Below, in pieces: positions 502-22,613 of a stretch of DNA of 64,000 nt. The stretch comes from Candidatus Omnitrophota bacterium. Its GTDB lineage: Bacteria; Omnitrophota; Gorgyraeia; B26-G9. The stretch covers positions 29,786 through 93,785 of the forward strand of contig JAZDHZ010000007.1 in assembly GCA_043805415.1 (NCBI GenBank), in the 5' to 3' direction. Made by a program: the position numbers and the translations under genes. Under the pieces are notes generated by a model, which saw nothing but the letters and a program-made list of their open reading frames with translations, had not been told where the DNA came from and ran no database searches. Every line of letters begins with the position of its first letter. Positions within the stretch are counted from its first letter, which is position 1.

Positions 502-1593
502 TTATCTTAATTTCAAAGTCGACAGACTAAACAGCGCCAGAATAATCGCCACAATCAAAAAGCGGAATATTATTTTTGACTCTGCCCAGCCTTTAAGCTG
601 AAAATGATGATGTAATGGGGCCATCAGAAATACTCTTTTTCCGCGCAACCGAAAAGAAAAAACCTGGATAATCACAGACAAAGCTTCGGCAACAAATATT
701 CCTCCCACCAGCACAAGCAATAATTCCTTTTTTATTAAAATAGCCACAGTACCCAAAGCACCGCCCAAAGCTAATGAACCGGTATCGCCCATAAAAATAT
801 CCGCCGGGTGACAATTATACCAAAGAAATCCCAGGCCCGCGCCGAAAATAGCCGCGCAAAAAACCGCAAGTTCGCCAGCTTGCGGCATAAAAATAATCTG
901 CAAATAATTACTAATTACATAGTGTCCGGTTACATAACTCATGCCGCAATAAGTAAGGGCCACGATTAAAACACAGCCTATGGCCAGACCATCTAAACCA
1001 TCAGTCAGGTTTACGGCGTTAGATGTTCCGATTATTACCAACGCGGAAAAAAATACATAAAAAGCGCCTAAGTGAATAATCAGATTTTTAAAAAACGGCA
1101 CATCTAAGCGATCCCCGATATTCGGATCCGCGTACAATAACAATCCGATAGCAATGCCCAAGACCATTTGACCGGCGAGCTTAACGGCAGCAGTTAAACC
1201 CCGGGATTTTTTCCTGGTCAGTTTTATATAATCATCGATAAATCCCACTATTCCTAACCAGACAGTGGAAAATAACGCGATCCAAATATATTTATTCGAT
1301 AAATCCGCCCATAATAAAACCGATAGAACAATAACAAAAATGATCAGGATTCCGCCCATGGTCGGAGTACCTTCTTTAGCTTTATGATGTTCATATAAAG
1401 ATGCCGTATCCTTTGTTTTACGTACCGATTCACCGATATTAAGCTTCTTCAGCATCTTGATAACTGTTTTACCCAGCATCGCGCTTAAAATAAATGCCGT
1501 GATCGCGCAAGCAACAATCCGAAATGTTATATATTTAAATACATTAAAACCAAAGAATACATCTTTTAAAGAATATAAAAAATGATAAAACAT
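502..1593 (-). CDS. mraY: phospho-N-acetylmuramoyl-pentapeptide transferase MraY
   Basis: A 363-aa polytopic membrane protein carrying typical MraY motifs (NAVNLTDGLDGLA, HHHFQ..GW). It lies between murF and murD. Confidence 0.95.
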   Translation of the reverse strand: MFYHFLYSLKDVFFGFNVFKYITFRIVACAITAFILSAMLGKTVIKMLKKLNIGESVRKTKDTASLYEHHKAKEGTPTMGGILIIFVIVLSVLLWADLSNKYIWIALFSTVWLGIVGFIDDYIKLTRKKSRGLTAAVKLAGQMVLGIAIGLLLYADPNIGDRLDVPFFKNLIIHLGAFYVFFSALVIIGTSNAVNLTDGLDGLAIGCVLIVALTYCGMSYVTGHYVISNYLQIIFMPQAGELAVFCAAIFGAGLGFLWYNCHPADIFMGDTGSLALGGALGTVAILIKKELLLVLVGGIFVAEALSVIIQVFSFRLRGKRVFLMAPLHHHFQLKGWAESKIIFRFLIVAIILALFSLSTLKLR

Positions 1594-1603
1594 AAGCGAT
1601 TAC

Positions 1604-3001
1604 CTATTCTTTTAATTTAGGGTTTAAAAAATCAATTATTTGTTCCAGATGCATGCCTCTTGAACCTTTAAGTAATACCACATCATCTTGTTTTCTTATT
1701 TTTTCTAAAACAGCCGCTGCTTCTTGATTAGTTTTACATTGATAAACATCTTCAGTCAACATCCCGCAATCTTTTGCGGCCATAGCCGCGTACTCCGCCT
1801 TTTGGCCAACAGTAATCAGCTTGGAGATCGAACTTTCCGCGATAAGTTTTCCAATCTGCTGATGCGCCTTATTACTGAATCTCCCTAATTCTAACATATC
1901 GCCAAAAACAAAAACTTTTCTTGTTTTACCTTTAATTGATACCAGCGTATTTATCGCCGCCAGGGTAGAATCAGGATTAGCATTATAACAATCGGCAATA
2001 ATACTCACTCCCTGACATTCTATTGTCTGCATGCGCAGCGATACTGGCTGGAATTTCAGCAATTGTTCTCTGATCAACGCATAGTCGATTTTAAAATGCT
2101 GGGCAATGGCTATTGCCGCTAAGGCATTGTACACATTATGCTCGCCTAAAACATTAATCCTAAACGTATACTTTTCATTAACCGTAAAAGCCATCCCATC
2201 AACATGACTGATTATATTTGATCCTTGATAAGCCGAGAGACTTTTTATTCCAAAATCCAGAAGCTCAACGCCAAACTCCTTAACTCTAGTATAAAGCGGC
2301 TTGCAATCAGCATTAACCACTGCCAGACTATTCGGCCCAAGCAGCTCAAGCAGCTCGCATTTCGCCTCTATTATATCAGAAATACTGTTAAAAAACTCTA
2401 GATGCGCGTTTGCCGCATTTGTAATCACCCCGATATCAGGAGCAGCGATAAAAGCCAGTCCCCTGATTTCTCCTTTATGGTTCATCCCCATTTCAATCAC
2501 TGCCGCCTGATGCGTGGCATCCAGCTCAAGCAAAGTCAGCGGCACTCCAATATGATTATTAAACGACCCTTTGCTTTTTAAGACTTTATATTTAGCTTCC
2601 AGAACGCAGGCAATCATATCCTTGGTAGTGGTTTTACCATTTGAGCCTGTCACGGCAATGATCGGGATAGAAAACTTTTTTCTATGGGTTTTAGCCAAAC
2701 AAGCTAAAGCCGCGATTGTATTTTCTACCGCGATAATCGGTTTATTAATCTTATTTAAATCTTTAGTATTTTCTTCGGCCCAGGCACTGGCAAGCAGCAC
2801 AGCTCGCGCACCCTTTTCCAGTGCCGGCAAAATATAGTCATGCCCATTAAAATTATCGCCGCGAATAGCGATAAACAAATTCCCGGGTTTTAAAGTCCGG
2901 GAATCAATCGACACTTGATTGATTTTCGTATTCAGATCAATCGCATCCTGATTAATTAAAACCCCTTGGGTAGCTTCAAGTATTTCTTTGATCGTAAACA
3001 T
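1604..3001 (-). CDS. murF: UDP-MurNAc-tripeptide--D-Ala-D-Ala ligase MurF
   Basis: The Mur ligase P-loop AVTGSNGKTTTKDM and a MurF-like N-terminal substrate domain are present. I trimmed the start to the ATG at 3001 (MFTIKEILEAT), which is preceded by AGGGAG 7 nt upstream. The longer ORF starting at 3049 would include that RBS. Confidence 0.9.
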   Translation of the reverse strand: MFTIKEILEATQGVLINQDAIDLNTKINQVSIDSRTLKPGNLFIAIRGDNFNGHDYILPALEKGARAVLLASAWAEENTKDLNKINKPIIAVENTIAALACLAKTHRKKFSIPIIAVTGSNGKTTTKDMIACVLEAKYKVLKSKGSFNNHIGVPLTLLELDATHQAAVIEMGMNHKGEIRGLAFIAAPDIGVITNAANAHLEFFNSISDIIEAKCELLELLGPNSLAVVNADCKPLYTRVKEFGVELLDFGIKSLSAYQGSNIISHVDGMAFTVNEKYTFRINVLGEHNVYNALAAIAIAQHFKIDYALIREQLLKFQPVSLRMQTIECQGVSIIADCYNANPDSTLAAINTLVSIKGKTRKVFVFGDMLELGRFSNKAHQQIGKLIAESSISKLITVGQKAEYAAMAAKDCGMLTEDVYQCKTNQEAAAVLEKIRKQDDVVLLKGSRGMHLEQIIDFLNPKLKE

Positions 3002-7986: not shown

Positions 7987-8436
7987 TCACTCCAGACCCA
8001 TGAGTTTTTCCGCAGTATCCTCAAAGGTCTCTCGAGTATTTTCATAAAATTCCTTCCAGCTATGTTTGCTCCAGATTTCTATTCTGTTAGCAACACCGAT
8101 AATTAAAACATCCTTGTCAATCTGGGCAAACTCTTTGAGATATTGCGGAATCAGAACCCTTCCTTGGGCATCGCAGATAATTTCGCTGGCACCGGAAAAG
8201 AATAAGCGATTAAACCGTCTGGCTTCAGCTTTGGTAAACGACAAAGCCTTAAATTTCTGTTCCTGGCGCCGCCATTCATCTTCCGTGAACACAAATAAAC
8301 ATCCGTCAAGCCCACGGGTAATAAAAAACTTTTCCCCGAAATTATTCTTAACTGCCTCGCGAAACTTGGCAGGAATAATAACCCGGTTTTTTTTATCTAA
8401 TGAATGTTCAAACTCTCCGTAGAACATATACCCCAC
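7987..8436 (-). CDS. mraZ: transcriptional regulator MraZ
   Basis: The duplicated MraZ/SpoVT-AbrB motifs DxKxRVxIPAKFR and RxxIPxxLxEFA are present and the protein (MFYGEFEHSLDKKNRVIIPAKFRE...) is about 145 aa. It is the first gene of the dcw cluster. The start is ambiguous: GTG at 8436 or ATG at 8427. Confidence 0.9.
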   Translation of the reverse strand: MGYMFYGEFEHSLDKKNRVIIPAKFREAVKNNFGEKFFITRGLDGCLFVFTEDEWRRQEQKFKALSFTKAEARRFNRLFFSGASEIICDAQGRVLIPQYLKEFAQIDKDVLIIGVANRIEIWSKHSWKEFYENTRETFEDTAEKLMGLE

Positions 8437-8638
8437 TTTCTACCACTTTTCTCCACATAAACAAATATACTTTATTTTCCAGTGCATGTCAACTAAAAAA
8501 CAGAATTATTTTAAAAAATATTTAATTATACTGTTTGCGATATTGGAAGTGAAGATTTACCTCAAGATATTGCGCTTGGCCTTAAAACTAAAAAAATCAT
8601 CCGGCATGGCTTGACATCATGCGCTTTGGGGATACCAC

Positions 8639-8667
8639 TTGACTTTCAGATATTAACTTGATAAAAT
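8639..8667 (+). promoter_or_regulatory. sigma70-like promoter: -35 TTGACT (8639-8644), 17-bp spacer, -10 TAAAAT (8662-8667)
   Basis: This is a near-consensus hexamer pair with optimal spacing. It points at the downstream SD (AGAGGAG, 8693-8701) and small ORF, then at the rSAM gene. A second TTGACA lies 25 bp upstream. Confidence 0.45.
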
Positions 8668-8706
8668 AATAAACAGACAAAATGTTGTTAAAGAGAGGAG
8701 ACTCCA

Positions 8707-8790
8707 TTGAAGCTGAAAAAAATTAATAAAACCACGGAAAAGAAAAATTTACTATCTCGTTTCTGCCGTTCCGGTAGAGTCTTGTGGTAG
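8707..8790 (+). CDS. 27-codon small ORF (TTG start) (M)KLKKINKTTEKKNLLSRFCRSGRVLW, a candidate RiPP precursor peptide
   Basis: A strong SD (AAGAGAGGAG) sits 5 nt upstream. It is the only open frame here. It lies between a consensus promoter and the RRE-rSAM-SPASM gene about 160 bp downstream. The product has a Lys-rich N-terminal half and a Cys/Trp-containing C-terminal half. Confidence 0.3.
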   Translation: MKLKKINKTTEKKNLLSRFCRSGRVLW

Positions 8791-8951
8791 AAATCAATTT
8801 ACGCCCAGAATAAACACCTGTTAATTTTTACCAGATTCGCTTTCCGATCAATCTCCCGCATATTTTAATGAGATTGAAGCAAGCAGACTGGAATGTGTTT
8901 TACATTTAACAATACTCTACAAGATATTTTTATCATTAAGCGCAGAAACCA

Positions 8952-10454
8952 ATGAACAATTTTACCCCCCCATGTTACTTATTTCAAAAATTAGGCCGTT
9001 ATTTTGCTGTTTCCACGGTTTCCGGTGATTTTTATGATATTTCTGAGCAAACATACACTGCTTTGCGTAAATGGAATGAACAGCTTTCCTGTTTAGCTAA
9101 ACCAGAAGAAGCGATTGCCGATAAATTAGCCCAAGCGGAAAATATTCCGGATGATATAATCAAAGCTTTTCCTTTGGTTAAGCCTGAATCTTTAGTTAAA
9201 TTAAGCAATGCTGAAAAGTATAATATAAGCGATTTGACCTTAAATTTAACTTCTTCCTGTAATCTGGCATGCATCTATTGCTGGAATGACCAGGGCAAGT
9301 ATTCTGACAATTCATTTGCTTCGGCGCAAACCCCAATCCCAGCCCATCAGCAAAATGTTGAGAAAATGTCGATTAAAACCGCGCAAGCGGCTGTAGATAT
9401 GTTTGTGCAACAGCGCGATCCCGGCACTAAGAATCTGCTGATTGATTTTTATGGCGGCGAGCCATTATTGAATTTAGAGACAATGCGTTTTGTGATTAGC
9501 TATGTGCAGAAGAATGAGGCTAAGTGGGGCGTAAGGATCAGATTTCTCTTAGCCACAAACGCTACTTTGCTTACTCCGTCGATTGCCGAGGAATTGCTGA
9601 ATAATGGAGTGCAAATCGCGGTCAGCCTGGATGGCCCCAAAGAAGTGCAGGATAAGAACCGGCCGTTTAGTGACGGTACAGGAAGTTTTGATACGATTTA
9701 CGCTAATCTGAAAAGCATGGCTCCGGAAACGCTCAAGCGTTTGGTTGGCAGAGCTACGGTTACTCCGGCTTATTGCGATATGGTTAATCTGTACAAATCT
9801 TTAAAAGCTGTCGGGTTTGAACGGATAGAGCTGTTTGAAAGCGAAGATGCTTGCCATCGGATTAATCCGACTCGGCAAACAATGTTTTTTAATACCCCGG
9901 AACAGTATGCGGAATTATGCCGGGAATATGAAAGGCTGGCTTTGCTTTATATTGAAGAAGTGGAAAATGGATTTCTTGATTATCGCAAGACTTTTTTTAA
10001 CCGTTTTTTTAAATTAATGCAAAGATTATATTATCAGCAGGAAGTTTCCGGCGGTTGTCCAGCTGGTCGCGGACAAATAGCGGTTTCTTTGGATGGCAAG
10101 ATTTTCCCCTGCACCGCTTTTATCGGAGTGGATAAGTTTGAGATCGGCAGTGTGGACCAAGGAATTAACCAGGATAAATATAAAGCGTTTATTAAAAAAG
10201 CAGACAAACGCATTGAGCATTGTCAGGAATGTAAATTATTCAGTTTGTGCAGAGCAACCGGCTCTTGTCTGAATCTAAATCATTATTATTGCGGTGATAT
10301 GTGTAAGCCTTATGAAATCGGCTGCAAGTTTTTTACTTTTAAAATAGAATTAGCCATTGCCGCTTTGTCGATTTTATCAGATAAAATTCCCGATTCTTTG
10401 GAAGATTTATTCGGTAATGATCCGGTTGGGGAAAGAGGAAATGTTTATTATTAA
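8952..10454 (+). CDS. radical SAM/SPASM peptide-modifying maturase with an N-terminal RRE (PqqD-like)-type extension
   Basis: A ~100-aa N-terminal extension precedes CNLACIYC (CX3CX2C). The C-terminal SPASM Cys-rich region reads GGCPAGRGQIAVSLDGKIFPCTAF...CQECKLFSLCRATGSC...CGDMCKPYEIGC. At 500 aa the architecture resembles sactisynthase/ranthipeptide/streptide-type maturases. Confidence 0.8.
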   Translation: MNNFTPPCYLFQKLGRYFAVSTVSGDFYDISEQTYTALRKWNEQLSCLAKPEEAIADKLAQAENIPDDIIKAFPLVKPESLVKLSNAEKYNISDLTLNLTSSCNLACIYCWNDQGKYSDNSFASAQTPIPAHQQNVEKMSIKTAQAAVDMFVQQRDPGTKNLLIDFYGGEPLLNLETMRFVISYVQKNEAKWGVRIRFLLATNATLLTPSIAEELLNNGVQIAVSLDGPKEVQDKNRPFSDGTGSFDTIYANLKSMAPETLKRLVGRATVTPAYCDMVNLYKSLKAVGFERIELFESEDACHRINPTRQTMFFNTPEQYAELCREYERLALLYIEEVENGFLDYRKTFFNRFFKLMQRLYYQQEVSGGCPAGRGQIAVSLDGKIFPCTAFIGVDKFEIGSVDQGINQDKYKAFIKKADKRIEHCQECKLFSLCRATGSCLNLNHYYCGDMCKPYEIGCKFFTFKIELAIAALSILSDKIPDSLEDLFGNDPVGERGNVYY

Positions 10455-16390: not shown

Positions 16391-17968
16391 TCATTGAAAC
16401 TTATTTGATTTAATAATGTTATCCAGATATTTATTGTTTAAATAATACCTATTTATCCTGTCTTGTTTTTTATCCGGGGTAATGAATGGCGTTATTGATA
16501 TAATAAAATTAATTATTTTCCTAATCCGGAATTCCATAAAAACGCTTCGCCACGCCCCTTGATACACCCTTAATAACACCATTTTCACTATGGGTGAGTG
16601 AGAAAAAAATTTATTAATTGATAACATACTCTTCCCTGAAGGAAGAATCCTCATTTGATTTTTACCCTTAAACCTAAAGGTAGGTATGAATTTGTCATTA
16701 TAAAACATATTTTTAAATTCTATATTCTTGTCTTTTAGCAATGCCGCATAACCCGGCATTGTCACAACAGGCTTAAAATTGGAAAACAGACCCAAATCAC
16801 AAACTCTGTTTACGTTTTTGCGCGTTAATGAGGAAGTCCTCTGCCCGGGAAACCCGTTTACGAACAAGCCTATCACCGTAATCTTATTCTTATTAAGCAT
16901 CCGGTAAATCCGTTCATAGTGGTTTATTACATCAATTTTTTTAGCCCGCATGATTTTATAATTCTTATCAAAGAGCGTTATATCACTATCTTCCAAAGAT
17001 TCTAATCCAACTGAAATAACTTTAAGCCCGGCCGGCACCGCCAATCTAATGAGCTCGGGATTATCAATGAAAACATCCGCGCGCATAGACGCTCCTAATT
17101 TAAAACCAAAATTTTTTTTAATTAAACCCTCCAAAATCGCCGCGTCCCTTTTAACGTTAGATCCAAAGTTATCGTCACTGATATGAACCTGACGAACGCC
17201 TCTTGCGTGCAATAGTTCAAATTCTTCCAGGGTTCTTTCAACAGATTTAAATCTTTGTACATTTCCAAACATTGGCCCCACACTACAAAAAGAGCACTTA
17301 TGCAAACAGCCCCTCGAGGTTTCTATGCACGCGCTCAACCCCTTCGCGCCCAATCCCAAGTCGTAATATTGCAAATCGACCTTTTCCCATCGAGGGATCG
17401 GAGACAAATCCAGATTATCAAGCAATCCCCTTTCCTCATTAAATACTATCTCCGTTTTACCGTCCTCTCGCTTCGGAGGATTACTCCCGGCATCTGTTTT
17501 TTCAAAATCACGCAAATAGGTAATGCCTTGTATCCGGCCGATACCCTTGCCGCGGTTGAAAGCGTCTAATATCTCAGGGAAGGTCTTTTCCGCTTCACCT
17601 CTGACCACAATATCCGCGCCTTTTTCAATCCATTCTTTACTATAAAAAGTTGCGTGATGGCCACCTACTATTATTTTAATCTTCGGGTTCATTATCTTAA
17701 TTAAGCGTATATTCATCTCTATATTTAATGCCACAACACTTTCCGGGCAATTCATACATACAACATCAAACATGTTTATGAGCTTAAAGTAGGATTTGGG
17801 ATCAATGTCCCGAATCGTCGCGTCAAAAATTGTAAATTCAGCGTCAGGATACAAAGATGCCAAAAGAGGATATACCGCGGAGAGCACTCTAAAAATAAAT
17901 TTAGCCGCATCATTGTGTATGGGCCAGCTCTGATAGAATTCTTTCGGTATCAACAAAAGCACTTTCAT
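16391..17968 (-). CDS. cobalamin (B12)-binding-domain radical SAM protein (class B rSAM, probable methyltransferase)
   Basis: An N-terminal B12-binding Rossmann-like domain is followed by CLHKCSFCSV (CX3CX2C) and a C-terminal rSAM TIM-barrel region. Confidence 0.85.
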   Translation of the reverse strand: MKVLLLIPKEFYQSWPIHNDAAKFIFRVLSAVYPLLASLYPDAEFTIFDATIRDIDPKSYFKLINMFDVVCMNCPESVVALNIEMNIRLIKIMNPKIKIIVGGHHATFYSKEWIEKGADIVVRGEAEKTFPEILDAFNRGKGIGRIQGITYLRDFEKTDAGSNPPKREDGKTEIVFNEERGLLDNLDLSPIPRWEKVDLQYYDLGLGAKGLSACIETSRGCLHKCSFCSVGPMFGNVQRFKSVERTLEEFELLHARGVRQVHISDDNFGSNVKRDAAILEGLIKKNFGFKLGASMRADVFIDNPELIRLAVPAGLKVISVGLESLEDSDITLFDKNYKIMRAKKIDVINHYERIYRMLNKNKITVIGLFVNGFPGQRTSSLTRKNVNRVCDLGLFSNFKPVVTMPGYAALLKDKNIEFKNMFYNDKFIPTFRFKGKNQMRILPSGKSMLSINKFFSHSPIVKMVLLRVYQGAWRSVFMEFRIRKIINFIISITPFITPDKKQDRINRYYLNNKYLDNIIKSNKFQ

Positions 17969-18475: not shown

Positions 18476-20041
18476 TTATGAATCATACCAATCCGGCTTT
18501 CTCTCGTGCATAAAACCAGTCAGGCCTTCACCTTTTCTTCGGTTAAGAATAGTATCGATGATATCCAACGACATCATCCTCATCGTATTCAGAAAAAACC
18601 ATTGATACAGTTTTCGTTTATGCCGATGCCGGGAAAAGAGCCCGCGAATTAACCAATGCGGACGGTACAGGACATACCGCTTGTTGAGTTCCATATTCAG
18701 GGCAGCAAAGTCATTGCGGGAAAGCCCCGCGCGTGAACGCATTAAAGGCGTTGTCCAATCATATTTTTTAAAATCTTTTTCTTCCAAAAGATCTTCCCGG
18801 CAAACTTCCTGATAAAAATAAGTCCCGGGGATCGGCGTTACCGGGTGAAAAGCCGGATAATCGATATCCAACTCCACAGCATACTTTACCAGTTCCAGCA
18901 TCGATTCCCTAGTATCCCACGGCAAACAGGTTAAAAAAGTACCTTGTCTAAAAACCTGGGGATATTTTTTTTTAAAAATATGGAAAACTTCTTTTACCAA
19001 ATCCTGGGAATACCCCGATTTGCGAATTGCTTCGAGGTCCTGTACACAACAGCGTTCGACTCCGATCAACGGATGAATCAGGCCAGCCTTAACCATCTTT
19101 TCAAGGATACCTTTTTTCTCGTCACGCAAAAGATAATCCGCCCTCAGAAACGCCCACCAATTCAAATCGCGGTAACGTCTCTTTAAAAGTTTTTCGCAAA
19201 ATTCATCATTCCAAGCCGGATCGACATTAAAGGTAGGGTCAGCCCAGAAAATATAGCGCACATTGTATTTTTTGTAGACAATATCAATTTCCTCGAGTGT
19301 CCTATCGACGCTCTTCGTCCGATATTGCGGAACAACCTCCAATTCCCCTTTTTCTATATCCGTTTTTACCTGTTTGCCCCAGAAAGTCCACAGGGAACAA
19401 AAACTGCAGCGATCGACACATCCCCGGGAATGTTCCAATGTAGCGCTTTGCGGCCATAAATAGCCATAAGGGGAATACTTATTCATGGGGAGCAGGTCAA
19501 AGGCCGGTAAGGGCAGTGCGTCCAAATCCTTGATTAAGGGACGCAAAGGGGTGCTGATAACCTGTCCATCACGCAGATAAGCGATACCGCTAACACGGGA
19601 CGGGTCTTCTCCTTTGAGCAAAACGCGCAACAGCTCCACCATGGTCTGTTCTCCTTCGAACCGCACGATAAAATCCAAAGGAAATTTGTTAAGACAACTC
19701 TCCGGCATCCAAGAAAAGAAATATCCCCCTGCGATCGTGATCGTTGCGGGATTGATCTCTTTAGCCAGTTCAAAAAGCTTGCCAGCTTCATGATGGTACA
19801 GCGCTTCCTCTCCCGCTCCAATGAAATCTGGACGTTCCTGCTCCAAAATAGTTTTAAGACTTTTCCATCCTATCTTTAAAGGAGCACAATCGATTATTTT
19901 TATTTCGATATCCGGGATATTGGCTCTAATATTAGCGGCTATGCAAGGAAGCCCGAGGGGAAGGAGAAAATTATCAGATTCATTGACAAAAGGCCAAATA
20001 TATCTGGGGGGTCGGATTAAAATTATCTTTTTCCGTGCCAT
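18476..20041 (-). CDS. cobalamin-binding-domain radical SAM protein (class B)
   Basis: N-terminal B12-binding domain, then CVDRCSFCSL. It is a paralog of 16391..17968. Confidence 0.85.
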   Translation of the reverse strand: MARKKIILIRPPRYIWPFVNESDNFLLPLGLPCIAANIRANIPDIEIKIIDCAPLKIGWKSLKTILEQERPDFIGAGEEALYHHEAGKLFELAKEINPATITIAGGYFFSWMPESCLNKFPLDFIVRFEGEQTMVELLRVLLKGEDPSRVSGIAYLRDGQVISTPLRPLIKDLDALPLPAFDLLPMNKYSPYGYLWPQSATLEHSRGCVDRCSFCSLWTFWGKQVKTDIEKGELEVVPQYRTKSVDRTLEEIDIVYKKYNVRYIFWADPTFNVDPAWNDEFCEKLLKRRYRDLNWWAFLRADYLLRDEKKGILEKMVKAGLIHPLIGVERCCVQDLEAIRKSGYSQDLVKEVFHIFKKKYPQVFRQGTFLTCLPWDTRESMLELVKYAVELDIDYPAFHPVTPIPGTYFYQEVCREDLLEEKDFKKYDWTTPLMRSRAGLSRNDFAALNMELNKRYVLYRPHWLIRGLFSRHRHKRKLYQWFFLNTMRMMSLDIIDTILNRRKGEGLTGFMHERKPDWYDS

Positions 20042-20265: not shown

Positions 20266-21465
20266 TCAGGCAAGAGAGCATACAATCTTATTTTTCCTGC
20301 AAAAACGTATCGCTTCCTGTAAGCGACCGTGAATTACCGCGGGACTCACTACATTATCAAGTACTTCGGTATCCCGAATATGCTGGTTAATGCTGTAGCC
20401 GTGAATATGAACCAGTCCGGGACGGATATCCCGCAGCAGTGCAAGCGTTTGGCGGAAATCATCCGCTGTTTCCGTAGAAAAGCCAACCAATATATGCGTA
20501 TTGATCTGCAATTCAGACCAGGCGCTCTTTAGTTTTTTCCAAGCATCTTTTAACTCAGCCTTTGTGTGCCGGCGATTCATAAAACCCAGCATCCGGTCAC
20601 TGCCTGACTGCACAGGACAATGCAGCACACTTATTTTCCCGGATCTAATTAACAAAGCCAATTCATCGGCATAACGGATCAGCCATACCGGGTGCAAATC
20701 CTCTATTTCTATACGAAAGTCTCCTTCAACTGATAAAATAGCTTTAAGCAATTCCGGTAAGCTGCTGTTTATATCTAATCCATACGCGCCTGAATTATTA
20801 GCGGTCAGGACTATTGTCTTTATTCCTTTTTTAACAGCGAGTTGTAACTCATTAAGGCAAATGGAAATATGCTTGCTGCGCAAAGCACCGATCGCTTGCC
20901 AGATCACACAAAAGCGGCAATGTTCTTTTTCACAGCCTGAAGCAATTCTAATATAACAATAATTACGAACATCTCTTCTGCGAAAATAGAATAACACTCG
21001 CTTGATAAAATTAAGATCAAAGCGAAAGACAAATAAATTTTCCTTTAAAAACCGCAATAGGTTAAAGCGGTAAATATTATTGCCATCTTTTACCGCGCTA
21101 AATCCAACCTTAAACTCAGGAAATAAAATATCAATATCATTATGATCAGCAGTCACAAGACTTAATCCTTTAAAATTTTCGTCCAGCCGCTTTTTATTTA
21201 TCCCCTTTAAGCATCCCGCAACAATAAGCCGCCCGCGATATTTGTCCAGTTCTTTTATCCGCTTTATTGCCCTATCTTCCCGGTCCTGGCTAAAAGCACA
21301 GGATATATAAAGAATATGCTCGGCCAATCCAGGCGATTTAATTACCCTGCATCCGTTTTGCATAAAATAATGTTCAAAGCGGGTAGCATCGATCCCTCGA
21401 TTAGGGCAGCCGGAATATTCGATATAAACTTTAGTTTTTCTAGGCAGTACCATATTCATGCTCAC
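20266..21465 (-). CDS. MiaB/RimO-family methylthiotransferase-like radical SAM protein (no TRAM domain; non-canonical CX4CX2C)
   Basis: The N-terminal MTTase domain has three Cys (SGCPNRG, ISCAF, AGCLKG). The rSAM motif is GCEKEHCRFC, aligned to MiaB GCNKYCTFC with a one-residue insertion. Confidence 0.65.
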   Translation of the reverse strand: MSMNMVLPRKTKVYIEYSGCPNRGIDATRFEHYFMQNGCRVIKSPGLAEHILYISCAFSQDREDRAIKRIKELDKYRGRLIVAGCLKGINKKRLDENFKGLSLVTADHNDIDILFPEFKVGFSAVKDGNNIYRFNLLRFLKENLFVFRFDLNFIKRVLFYFRRRDVRNYCYIRIASGCEKEHCRFCVIWQAIGALRSKHISICLNELQLAVKKGIKTIVLTANNSGAYGLDINSSLPELLKAILSVEGDFRIEIEDLHPVWLIRYADELALLIRSGKISVLHCPVQSGSDRMLGFMNRRHTKAELKDAWKKLKSAWSELQINTHILVGFSTETADDFRQTLALLRDIRPGLVHIHGYSINQHIRDTEVLDNVVSPAVIHGRLQEAIRFCRKNKIVCSLA

Positions 21466-22613
21466 TGGAGAATTTTACCAAAACAGATACTTTTATACAA
21501 AGCCTCTAGCTGAACCCTTGGATCAGACATGAGATATTTAGGATCCCGATAGCAGCCAAATAAGCAGCCGCTACAATTGGTTCTTATCTTACGGCATTTA
21601 TTTTTAAATTCTACACTTTTAAAAACACGCATAAAATCACGGCTCTTACAATCTGCCACCGGAGTCTCATAAGCACGCATAATCGTATCACAACAGGGCG
21701 CCATAACCCCTGTAGGCGCGATGTCAAAAGAAAGTATTCCGGCAGCGCATGGCCAGCCGCATTGACCGCTTGTGAGATAATTTTGCAGATCATCTATCAT
21801 CCGCTTTGTCGTAAGGATGCGATAACCTCTATCCATGAACTTGCGTACTTTTTTACATACCGCTTCAGCTGCTTTCTTTTCCAATCTGAGCAAACTGAAT
21901 TCATTATCAATCTCTGCCGGATTTTCAGAAGATAAACTGGAGAAATTACGCACAAAAATACAAGGATCAAAAAACGCGCCCATTGCTTGCACATATTCTA
22001 TTAAATCCGGCAATTCAAAAAAATTCTTAGCCGAAATAACAACATTGACCGCGACCACTCCTTTTCGCGAGTAATTTTTTACGCAGTAGCGGATAACCCG
22101 TTGAGCATTACTAAGCACATTTTCAGCATTGCAGATGTCATCCTGCTTTTTAGGATCAAGCGTATCCAGCGAGATACTGATATCATTAAGCCCGGCTCGA
22201 TAACAACTGTCCAGCAATGCTTCACTCACATGCTCTCCGCCATTAGTCTGAATCCGCACAATAAACCCGTAGCGGCTGAAAAGTTCTATTATACTTAAAA
22301 TATCCTCACGCAATAAAGGCTCACCACCGGTAAGAATTACCTGAGAGGTTCCGATTTTTTTTAGATTTTCCGCTACTACCGTCAATTCGCTTAACGACAT
22401 TTCAGGCGTGCCGATGACTTTATCTACAGAACACATTTTACAGTGATAATTGCACCGGCTGCTCAGCCACAAACGAACATTGAGCGGGGTGCCAAACAGC
22501 ATGCTTTTCAAAACTCCCTGTGCAAATCTAAACATAATCAGCCTTAGAAAAAAAGTTGAATATCCAAAATAATGATCTAAAATTAATATCCTAACCGATA
22601 AACGCTTTGTCAA
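21462..22613 (-). CDS. radical SAM/SPASM-domain protein
   Basis: CNYHCKMCSV is present. The C-terminal Cys cluster reads GQCGWPCAAG...APCCDT...CSGCLFGC. Confidence 0.8.
   Translation of the reverse strand: MTKRLSVRILILDHYFGYSTFFLRLIMFRFAQGVLKSMLFGTPLNVRLWLSSRCNYHCKMCSVDKVIGTPEMSLSELTVVAENLKKIGTSQVILTGGEPLLREDILSIIELFSRYGFIVRIQTNGGEHVSEALLDSCYRAGLNDISISLDTLDPKKQDDICNAENVLSNAQRVIRYCVKNYSRKGVVAVNVVISAKNFFELPDLIEYVQAMGAFFDPCIFVRNFSSLSSENPAEIDNEFSLLRLEKKAAEAVCKKVRKFMDRGYRILTTKRMIDDLQNYLTSGQCGWPCAAGILSFDIAPTGVMAPCCDTIMRAYETPVADCKSRDFMRVFKSVEFKNKCRKIRTNCSGCLFGCYRDPKYLMSDPRVQLEALYKSICFGKILQ

Follow-up and report, generated by a model that had tools for sequence, protein, structure and literature searches.

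A conserved micro-gene and its radical SAM-SPASM partner in Omnitrophota and Elusimicrobiota: a putative new family of enzyme-modified peptides

Described relatives and the place of the cassette among them

Among the radical S-adenosylmethionine (rSAM) enzymes with a SPASM domain that act on peptides made by ribosomes and modified after their translation (RiPPs), CteB and PapB serve as the main points of comparison in this study. The leader of CteA, the SCIFF peptide which is the substrate of CteB, pairs as a strand with the RiPP recognition element (RRE) of the enzyme (PMC6231123), and the two auxiliary clusters of CteB are held by three Cys (auxiliary cluster I, AC1) and four Cys (AC2), respectively (PMC10177961). 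AC1 has an open site in CteB, PapB and Tte1186, at which a bond between a substrate seleno-Cys and iron was measured (PMC10177961). PapB needs only a thiol and a carboxylate, activates the carbon beside this carboxylate and tolerates 0-6 residues in between, while a conserved Asn in the leader of its substrate PapA was proposed to take part in RRE binding (PMC9413430). In this study we describe a cassette of a 27-codon peptide gene and an enzyme of this kind in a stretch of 64,000 nucleotides from the metagenome-assembled genome of a Candidatus Omnitrophota bacterium (assembly GCA_043805415.1, contig JAZDHZ010000007.1, positions 29,786 to 93,785), which is referred to as the window. The genomes with this pair number well over a hundred and belong to uncultured Omnitrophota, Elusimicrobiota and other organisms. 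The pair appears to represent an as yet undescribed kind of enzyme-modified peptide, with a new precursor and maturase family among the peptides modified by rSAM-SPASM enzymes.

The cassette has most in common with CteB and CteA (SCIFF, thermocellin). Both enzymes combine RRE, rSAM domain and a SPASM domain with seven Cys (three plus four ligands), both systems are two-gene cassettes without a conserved protease or exporter and occur lineage-wide, and CteB is the best match of the window enzyme in sequence as well as in fold. However, the two are only 23-25% identical, and the SCIFF maturase model of NCBIfam (TIGR03974) reaches 181.8 bits against a cut-off of 425. CteB also lacks two features of the family described here, namely an insertion of ~25 residues right after the CX3CX2C motif (residues 112-135, modelled with low confidence) and a conserved C-terminal tail (residues 480-500, L-F-G-x-D-P-V-G-R-R-G-N-x-L-Y). 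SCIFF peptides, which belong to Clostridia, have six Cys in ~45 residues, whereas the peptides from Omnitrophota and Elusimicrobiota comprise 26-36 residues, carry one Cys (two in one subfamily), are very basic and end in an invariant RVLW.

The best-scoring named hidden Markov model is that of PapB (NF047865), the maturase of the ranthipeptide freyrasin, with 234.8 bits under a cut-off of 340. A leader Asn is common to PapA and the peptides of the cassette (PMC9413430), and the six residues between Cys and C-terminus fall within the spacing that PapB tolerates. In contrast to PapA, which receives six cross-links, the peptide has room for only one, and it contains neither a C-x3-D motif nor any Asp or Glu in its core. 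QhpD, the thioether-forming rSAM-SPASM enzyme that acts on QhpC, the gamma subunit of quinohemoprotein amine dehydrogenase, matches end to end with 199.6 bits (TIGR03906, cut-off 453), and in QhpC, too, a Cys and a Trp are important for function. However, no genes for QhpA, QhpB, QhpC or QhpG were found near the cassette, and the peptide offers no Asp or Glu as acceptor. More distant are the enzymes of two other kinds of chemistry. Sulfatase-maturating anSME shares the rSAM-SPASM fold and acts on Cys in a C-x-x-x-R context, but it has no RRE and its AC1 is fully ligated (PMC6231123). StrB/SuiB and WprB are RRE-bearing rSAM-SPASM enzymes which install a Trp cross-link in a short peptide, as is considered below for the peptide of the cassette, but their sequence relation to the window enzyme is much weaker, AC1 of SuiB is fully ligated and no Cys takes part in their chemistry. 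The cassette is thus SCIFF- and ranthipeptide-like in architecture and stands outside any named family, as the enzyme misses the respective cut-offs, the peptide remains unmatched, and both the Asp/Glu of ranthipeptides and the six Cys of SCIFF peptides are absent.

This also holds for databases and literature with regard to the peptide. A scan of four representative peptides against NCBIfam gave no match at E <= 10, and the sole match in a Pfam scan was non-significant (E 0.59, far below the cut-off). A collection of 5.8 billion protein sequences contained 26 peptides of the family, all of them 30-59 residues long and either unnamed or listed as "hypothetical protein". That only 26 copies are catalogued is explained by the common forms of 26-27 residues not being called by annotation pipelines. 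Full-text searches of the literature yielded no description of the motif, nor of Omnitrophota in connection with SPASM, ranthipeptide or RiPP.

Conservation of the peptide gene and its linkage to the enzyme

A first-pass annotation of the window had proposed a TTGACT-17-TAAAAT promoter, a Shine-Dalgarno sequence, a 27-codon open reading frame (ORF) with a TTG start and a gene for a 500-residue enzyme, all of which were indeed located where it had put them (Table 1). Judged at this one locus, neither the promoter match nor the small ORF is beyond chance, with 11 promoter-like sites in the region compared to 7.2 +/- 2.9 in shuffles and 100 ORFs of at least 20 residues within 8 kb. As these single-locus signals lie within chance, the significance of the cassette rests on the comparison across genomes, which was performed from both sides of the pair.

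From the side of the enzyme, 77 loci of species-representative genomes were fetched via an enzyme alignment, 50 of them encoding an enzyme at least 36% identical to that of the window. Three of these 50 (L036, L047 and L048) include no upstream sequence and were left out of the linkage count. In a six-frame scan, 45 loci showed, next to the enzyme, a small ORF that terminates in [F/Y]-C-R-[S/C]-G-R-V-L-W-stop, and L042 a variant with C-G-C-S-R-V-L-W at its end; L019 was the sole readable locus in which no such ORF stood beside the enzyme. With the window included, linkage amounts to 47 of 48 loci with readable flanks. No such ORF was found near enzymes of at most 31% identity, and the idea that the nearest outgroup enzymes (28-31% identity) possess related precursors was dropped.

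From the side of the peptide, metagenome contigs were scanned with a degenerate DNA pattern covering the last nine codons and the stop, which returned 80 stretches, consisting of 74 peptide genes of the family and 6 unrelated chance matches. An enzyme gene lies within 18-353 nt of 69 of the 74; in 68 cases the peptide gene is located upstream of it on the same strand, and in one case the two are convergent. Two of the remaining contigs end too soon, and three (L078, L079 and L120) are without enzyme, so that 69 of 72 peptide genes are linked once the two contigs without room are excluded. The three peptide genes without adjoining maturase (L078, 1371-1463; L079, about 1169-1250, minus strand; L120) belong to the second group and are followed by IS3-like transposase ORFs, directly by an orthologue of a B12-binding rSAM gene, or by a GT2 gene, in one case each. 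Beside homologues of the enzyme the small ORF is therefore nearly always present, with invariant C-terminal residues, which bears out the first-pass annotation on this point.

The pair was also retained where gene order changed. A peptide gene located downstream of the enzyme on the opposite strand was seen in five genome loci (L001, L002, L003, L014 and L035) and in one from a metagenome (L110). The same applies to L158, which encodes the closest relative of the window enzyme; there the peptide gene (2625-2696, minus strand) lies downstream in convergent orientation, and the peptide is truncated by the end of the contig at ...TKKKNLPSRFCRSGRVLW. Gene order is thus switched between the window and L158 despite enzymes that are 70% identical. 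As the pair outlasts inversion, the peptide gene must own a promoter, which rules out a role as cis-acting leader peptide.

The small ORF appears to be translated and under purifying selection, as its synonymous codons vary and its residues are fixed. The last 13 codons occur in 44 distinct nucleotide versions, in which Arg is encoded by 5-6 different codons and Ser, Val, Leu and Gly by 4-5 each, whereas C, R(+4), V, L and W never vary and the stop always follows directly after Trp. The same core is encoded in the high-GC genome L159. Signals of expression were evaluated for 106 distinct peptide genes, 104 of which have an assignable start codon. A Shine-Dalgarno match precedes the start by 4-16 nt in 99 of these 104; the start is ATG in 100 genes, and that of the window is the only TTG. 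A sigma70-like site of at least 10/12 is found within 120 nt upstream of 36% of the peptide genes compared to 3.4% of shuffles, and the end of the -10 element is mostly 17-30 nt away from the start codon, with a distance of 39 nt in the window. Taken together, sequence comparison identifies the 27-codon ORF as a real, strongly conserved and mostly unannotated gene.

The lengths of the peptides peak at 26-27 and 36 residues. Their N-terminal part is strongly basic, the last 24 residues of the peptide containing ~9 Lys/Arg, and varies in length via repeats of the KKxKAKK type. The C-terminal order in the alignment is an aromatic residue (Y or F), followed by C, R, S or C, G, R, V, L and W, with W always being the last residue. 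N7 is nearly invariant and is part of an [ILV]-N-[KR] motif, the Asn of which precedes the Cys by 13 positions in 64 of the 75 distinct sequences. In these 75 distinct C-terminal 24-mers the last 12 residues never include Asp or Glu and position +2 after the Cys is Ser or Cys, never Pro or Ala; invariance at the positions -1, 0, +4, +5 and +7 of this set is partly imposed by the search pattern. A looser pattern, applied to loci picked via the enzyme alone, nevertheless returned the same invariant residues.

Three enzyme subfamilies can be told apart in the alignments, each of which pairs with its own leader type, while the core is common to all. The main subfamily, with enzymes 52-70% identical to that of the window, is associated with peptides of the type ..K-[IV]-N-K-T-T-K-x-K-K-K-L-S-R-Y-CRSGRVLW, and the second (37-42% identical) with M-I-R-L-L-N-R-..-Y-R-A-A-F-CRCGRVLW. 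In the third (about 37-39% identical; L044, L050, L099 and L159) the peptides follow ..[KR]-[IL]-S-[KR]..K-R-T-R-[FY]-CRSGRVLW, with [IL]-S-[KR] occupying the place of [ILV]-N-[KR]. A leader that co-varies with the enzyme next to an invariant core is what recognition of the leader by an RRE predicts. Some genomes have several cassettes, either of the same subfamily (L015 and L038, which stem from the same metagenome-assembled genome) or of two subfamilies located 5 kb apart (L018, 283-387 and 5216-5296). This suggests that these genomes possess paralogous systems with separate leader/RRE specificities and a common core.

The maturase and its proposed reaction

The 500-residue protein of the window, which is 100% identical to an NCBI entry, contains a Radical_SAM domain (residues 98-262, 50.5 bits, cut-off 29.5) and a SPASM domain (residues 369-428, 26.5 bits, cut-off 21.5) according to Pfam. 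No named NCBIfam family reaches its curated cut-off with this enzyme. Besides PapB, QhpD and the SCIFF maturases, the top matches are the nif11-type (217 bits, cut-off 519) and CcpM (177 bits, cut-off 500) models, and all of them represent peptide maturases that form thioethers or act on Cys-rich peptides. Considerably lower scores are obtained with the models of RumMC (99 bits, cut-off 720), taken as reference for sactipeptides with their thioether from the Cys sulfur to an alpha-carbon, of YhhB, DynA and FxsB (71-89 bits) and of anSME (77-85 bits, cut-offs 349-441; 85.5 bits against 349 for TIGR03942). The enzyme does not group with anSME, in line with the view taken in the first-pass annotation. 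Within a library clustered at 50% identity, the family is represented by three full-length sequences (785, 592 and 456 bits), below which come shorter, apparently partial sequences (321-357 bits) and, at ~280 bits, the next full-length protein. By these scores the enzyme family is compact and sharply bounded.

The first-pass annotation had further suspected an RRE in the N-terminal extension, and profile, model and fold comparison all point in this direction. A profile of 25 family members matches CteB (5WGG/5WHY) with E 1e-65, aligning profile positions 6-468 to CteB residues 5-445 and thereby including the RRE of CteB. An AlphaFold2 (AF2) model of the enzyme (mean pLDDT 83.5, pTM 0.86) starts with three strands (8-13, 16-21 and 27-30) and three helices (32-46, 53-62 and 67-72), with block-mean pLDDT values of 79-97, and a PqqD-like order of three strands plus three helices is the topology by which an RRE is defined (PMC6231123). 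The N-terminus is hence predicted to be RRE-like. A Foldseek search against the PDB ranked CteB first (TM 0.71 query-normalised and 0.83 target-normalised, 475 columns, 23-25% identity), followed by anSME (E 3e-16, TM 0.59-0.75), TigE, ChlB and SuiB.

Ten Cys are invariant in the 25 sequences, C103, C107 and C110 of the rSAM motif and seven in the SPASM domain. In the HMMER alignment, these seven align to the three AC1 and four AC2 ligands of CteB, and the alignment of the 25 family members includes no eighth conserved SPASM Cys. As seven Cys match three plus four ligands and no eighth is conserved, AC1 probably has an open site by analogy with CteB, PapB and Tte1186. In addition, residues 347-361 form a strongly conserved and partly invariant segment (T-F-F-N-R-F-F-K-L-M-Q-R-L-Y-Y).

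At the level of sequence comparison, the cassette comprises a translated and selected micro-gene that is reciprocally linked to an RRE-rSAM-SPASM enzyme near the thioether synthases. It is likely that this enzyme modifies the ribosomally made peptide, with the leader bound to the RRE, Cys20 bound to AC1 and a single thioether being formed. The Lys-rich leader would dock with its [ILV]-N-[KR] motif as a strand on the RRE, where the Asn may, by analogy, play the role of the leader Asn of PapA. Docking would set the C-terminal octapeptide C-R-S-G-R-V-L-W in the active site, and the thiolate of Cys20 would bind the open iron of AC1. A residue downstream of Cys20 would serve as acceptor: a 5'-deoxyadenosyl radical would take a hydrogen from one of its carbons, and capture of the carbon radical by the sulfur would close one intramolecular thioether ring (-2 Da). 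The preferred acceptor would be the carbon of the C-terminal Trp27 beside the free carboxylate, corresponding to PapB-type chemistry, with Arg24 as an alternative, in which case C-x3-R would parallel the C-x3-D of PapA. A link between Cys20 and Trp27 is favoured as the C-terminus is the sole conserved carboxylate and, being six residues apart, lies within the range of PapB; this choice of acceptor is speculative. Of the two cross-links considered in the first-pass annotation, a Cys thioether would suit the relatives of the enzyme better and a Lys-Trp link less well. The entire modified mini-protein would act inside the cell, as was proposed for SCIFF peptides, and intracellular action appears probable as no protease or exporter is conserved nearby.

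Several points speak against this proposal. All of the chemistry is transferred from relatives at 23-25% identity, and as the enzyme stays below the curated cut-offs of all named families, it may catalyse some other reaction. Among the invariant residues that follow the Cys in the core (R, V, L and W), there is no documented ranthipeptide acceptor. In the crystal of CteB, the Cys seen on AC1 is a leader Cys and not the one that is cross-linked (PMC6231123). Moreover, the main subfamily has an additional C301-H302 pair within an insertion that CteB lacks, which could provide a fourth ligand of AC1; the pair is absent from the second subfamily.

A more far-reaching version of the thioether proposal, possible if rather on the unlikely side, regards the peptide as a lineage-wide housekeeping micro-protein and not as a secreted antibiotic. 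It would carry a thioether from Cys20 to its own C-terminal Trp and would be kept in the cell for a conserved function, for instance that of a redox or metal-binding prosthetic peptide or that of a partner of the polyprenyl/glycan envelope machinery. In some lineages an adjacent B12-binding rSAM enzyme may modify it further.

Instead of a thioether, the enzyme might form a carbon-carbon cross-link onto the indole of Trp27, starting from Arg24 or a Lys, with the Cys merely anchoring the substrate on the auxiliary cluster. Trp27 and Arg24 are both invariant, and the mass change would likewise be -2 Da. Such a product would be comparable to streptide (Lys-Trp), to that of WprB or to darobactin. 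Links of this type are known from the RRE-bearing rSAM-SPASM enzymes SuiB and WprB, the latter of which is reported to join Trp-C5 to Arg-C-gamma (PMC11851443). However, the profile match to SuiB is confined to the SPASM part (E 1.8e-5), the YhhB, DynA and FxsB models fall far behind those of thioether enzymes (182-235 bits), and the fully ligated AC1 of SuiB (PMC6231123) contrasts with the CteB-like three plus four Cys found here. As a carbon-carbon link would furthermore leave the invariant Cys without a chemical role, we judge it unlikely.

The invariant C and R(+4) are spaced like those of the sulfatase motif C-x-P-x-R, which brings up an anSME-like oxidation of the Cys to formylglycine (-18 Da) in a C-x-x-x-R context, without any ring. 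In addition, anSME is the second-best structural match, and a sulfatase gene adjoins the cassette in L006, L007 and L023. These are, however, only three of the examined genome loci, and a sulfatase partner was therefore rejected. Position +2 being Ser or Cys does not agree with the motif either. In anSME the RRE is missing and AC1 is fully ligated (PMC6231123), in contrast to the window enzyme with its predicted RRE and no more than seven SPASM Cys. Together with the low scores of the anSME models this makes formylglycine formation very unlikely.

Much the same low probability is given to the idea that the peptide gives rise to a small molecule of the cofactor type, which would be made from the C-terminal Val-Leu-Trp and trimmed by unlinked peptidases in a manner similar to mycofactocin or PQQ. 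In mycofactocin, MftC decarboxylates and cross-links a C-terminal Val-Tyr. Throughout three phylum-level groups the C-terminal residues are invariant, although identity between the enzymes drops to 37%, and such a frozen C-terminus fits a product of fixed chemistry rather than an arms-race antibiotic; also, Trp is always last and no exporter is conserved nearby. Yet the mycofactocin and PqqE models are outside the 25 best NCBIfam matches, no conserved peptidase, dehydrogenase or carrier gene stands beside the cassette, and the invariant Cys and Arg would remain unexplained.

Least probable of all, and hardly credible, is that the small ORF does not encode the substrate of the enzyme but a small basic protein of its own or a leader peptide with a regulatory role. 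The basic composition reminiscent of nucleic-acid-binding mini-proteins and the three peptide genes without adjoining maturase are opposed by a reciprocal linkage that is kept through inversion of the gene order, by leader types that co-vary with the enzyme subfamily, by the inability of a cis-acting leader peptide to work downstream on the opposite strand and by the transposase genes that interrupt one of the three exceptions.

A peptide modified by the enzyme encoded next to it, and hence the RiPP reading of the locus given by the first-pass annotation, accordingly appears largely right.

Setting of the cassette in the genome and in the lineage

Table 1. Features of the cassette, together with a more distant candidate gene, in positions of the window
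Feature	Position	Strand	Basis or score
Sigma70-like promoter of the peptide gene: TTGACT (8639-8644), 17-nt spacer, TG-preceded TAAAAT (8662-8667)	8639..8667	+	10/12 match
Shine-Dalgarno sequence GAGAGGAGA, 6 nt 5' of the TTG start	8693..8701	+	Sequence inspection
Precursor peptide gene, TTG start at 8707, 27 codons + stop, (M)KLKKINKTTEKKNLLSRFCRSGRVLW	8707..8790	+	
Leader motif I6-N7-K8 ([ILV]-N-[KR]), 12 residues ahead of the Cys, putative RRE contact	8722..8730	+	Alignment
Core F19-C20-R21-S22-G23-R24-V25-L26-W27	8761..8787	+	Alignment
RRE-rSAM-SPASM peptide maturase, 500 aa	8952..10454	+	Pfam, NCBIfam, profile, AF2 model
Predicted N-terminal RRE-like domain, residues 8-72	8973..9167	+	AF2 model; profile alignment to CteB N-terminus
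rSAM cluster motif C103-x3-C107-x2-C110	9258..9281	+	Invariant in 25 sequences
SPASM domain, seven invariant Cys (C369, C387, C424, C427, C433, C439, C458)	10056..10325	+	
B12-binding rSAM gene, weak accessory candidate	18476..20041	-	

The cassette is flanked by mraZ (7987-8436, minus strand, Pfam MraZ) on one side and by a Wzy_C/GT2 pair on the other, which heads a long minus-strand envelope-glycan cluster, and it runs on the plus strand among large ORFs that are almost all on the minus strand. Its location between the dcw genes and the glycan cluster and its orientation against the neighbours are hence as described in the first-pass annotation. The latter had, however, also called the locus compositionally distinct, which does not hold, as its GC content of 0.34-0.44 is within the range of the flanks (0.33-0.46). 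A foreign island was therefore rejected; only the GC skew changes sign, as expected of a gene on the opposite strand. An RNA element in place of the peptide was rejected as well, since an Rfam scan of 8350-9050 gave no match and the 161-nt spacer between peptide ORF and enzyme ORF folds no better than shuffles (z = -1.2); no terminator-like site was found after the peptide gene.

The best sigma70-like match in the gap between mraZ and the peptide gene is located on the minus strand (8464-8492, TTGACA-17-TATATT, 11/12), 28 nt before the GTG of mraZ. Because of this site, the 270-nt gap probably holds divergent promoters, one for the dcw operon and one for the peptide gene. As listed, the ORFs of mraZ and rsmH share 59 nt (7987-8045), and the true start of rsmH is probably further downstream.

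An all-against-all comparison of the flanking ORFs from 51 loci revealed no further universal neighbour and no conserved transporter or protease. The commonest neighbour is a gene for a B12-binding rSAM enzyme. Of the loci with room for it, 11 of about 42 from genomes and ~10 of 29 from metagenomes (about 30%) carry a specific orthologue downstream of the maturase, on the same strand and at a distance of 18-229 nt, and it accompanies both large enzyme subfamilies. The copy of the window is 70-74% identical to the maturase-adjoining copies (71% to that of L011), has BchE as its best NCBIfam match (185 bits, cut-off 481) and is found 8 kb from the cassette on the opposite strand. Six reverse look-ups starting from the B12-binding rSAM gene led mostly to a cluster of UbiA, polyprenyl synthase, a 398-residue rSAM protein, GT2, PMT_2, carbamoyltransferase and Peptidase_U32 genes, and in only one of the six was the cassette located upstream. 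With an adjoining copy in about 30% of the loci and reverse look-ups that are mostly without the cassette, the gene was rejected as an obligatory third component. Even its link to the cassette as an accessory is considered weak, because the reverse look-ups place it mostly in the polyprenyl/glycan cluster without the cassette.

A firmer observation is that the cassette is often located at the edge of a polyprenyl/glycan envelope cluster. The same kind of cluster fills the window from 10.6 to 54 kb. It is co-directional (10592-54215, minus strand) and comprises, in addition to Wzy_C+TPR, GT2 and two unnamed membrane ORFs, four B12-binding rSAM genes (at 16391, 18476, 28717 and 38154, the third being fused to a GT2 domain), a MiaB-like rSAM gene (20266-21465), another rSAM gene (21462-22613), five PMT_2 glycosyltransferases, a DegT aminotransferase and a carbamoyltransferase. 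Such a density of rSAM genes within a glycan cluster is unusual.

In one clade, a gene for an M48 peptidase with a PDZ domain is located directly upstream of the maturase (L001, 2360-3406; L002, 2902-3957; L035, 2881-3903). Given the affinity of PDZ domains for hydrophobic C-termini, the peptidase could serve this clade as a processing protease. As a conserved leader protease it was rejected, being limited to the clade of these three loci and absent from the window.

The peptide gene represents an overlooked gene, as most of its copies comprise 26-27 codons and are missed by annotation pipelines. Yet the cassette is widespread in Omnitrophota and Elusimicrobiota, phyla with few cultured members and little known chemistry, and it also occurs in some high-GC genomes. 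Since none of the usual acceptors is present in the core, the chance of a new cross-link chemistry is real, and if the proposed link is true, a C-terminal Trp would be an acceptor not previously described for rSAM thioether synthases. As in the case of the SCIFF peptides, the question of function is raised by a core octapeptide that is conserved although the enzymes share as little as 37% identity. Such conservation is unusual among RiPPs and speaks for a fixed role, probably inside the cell.

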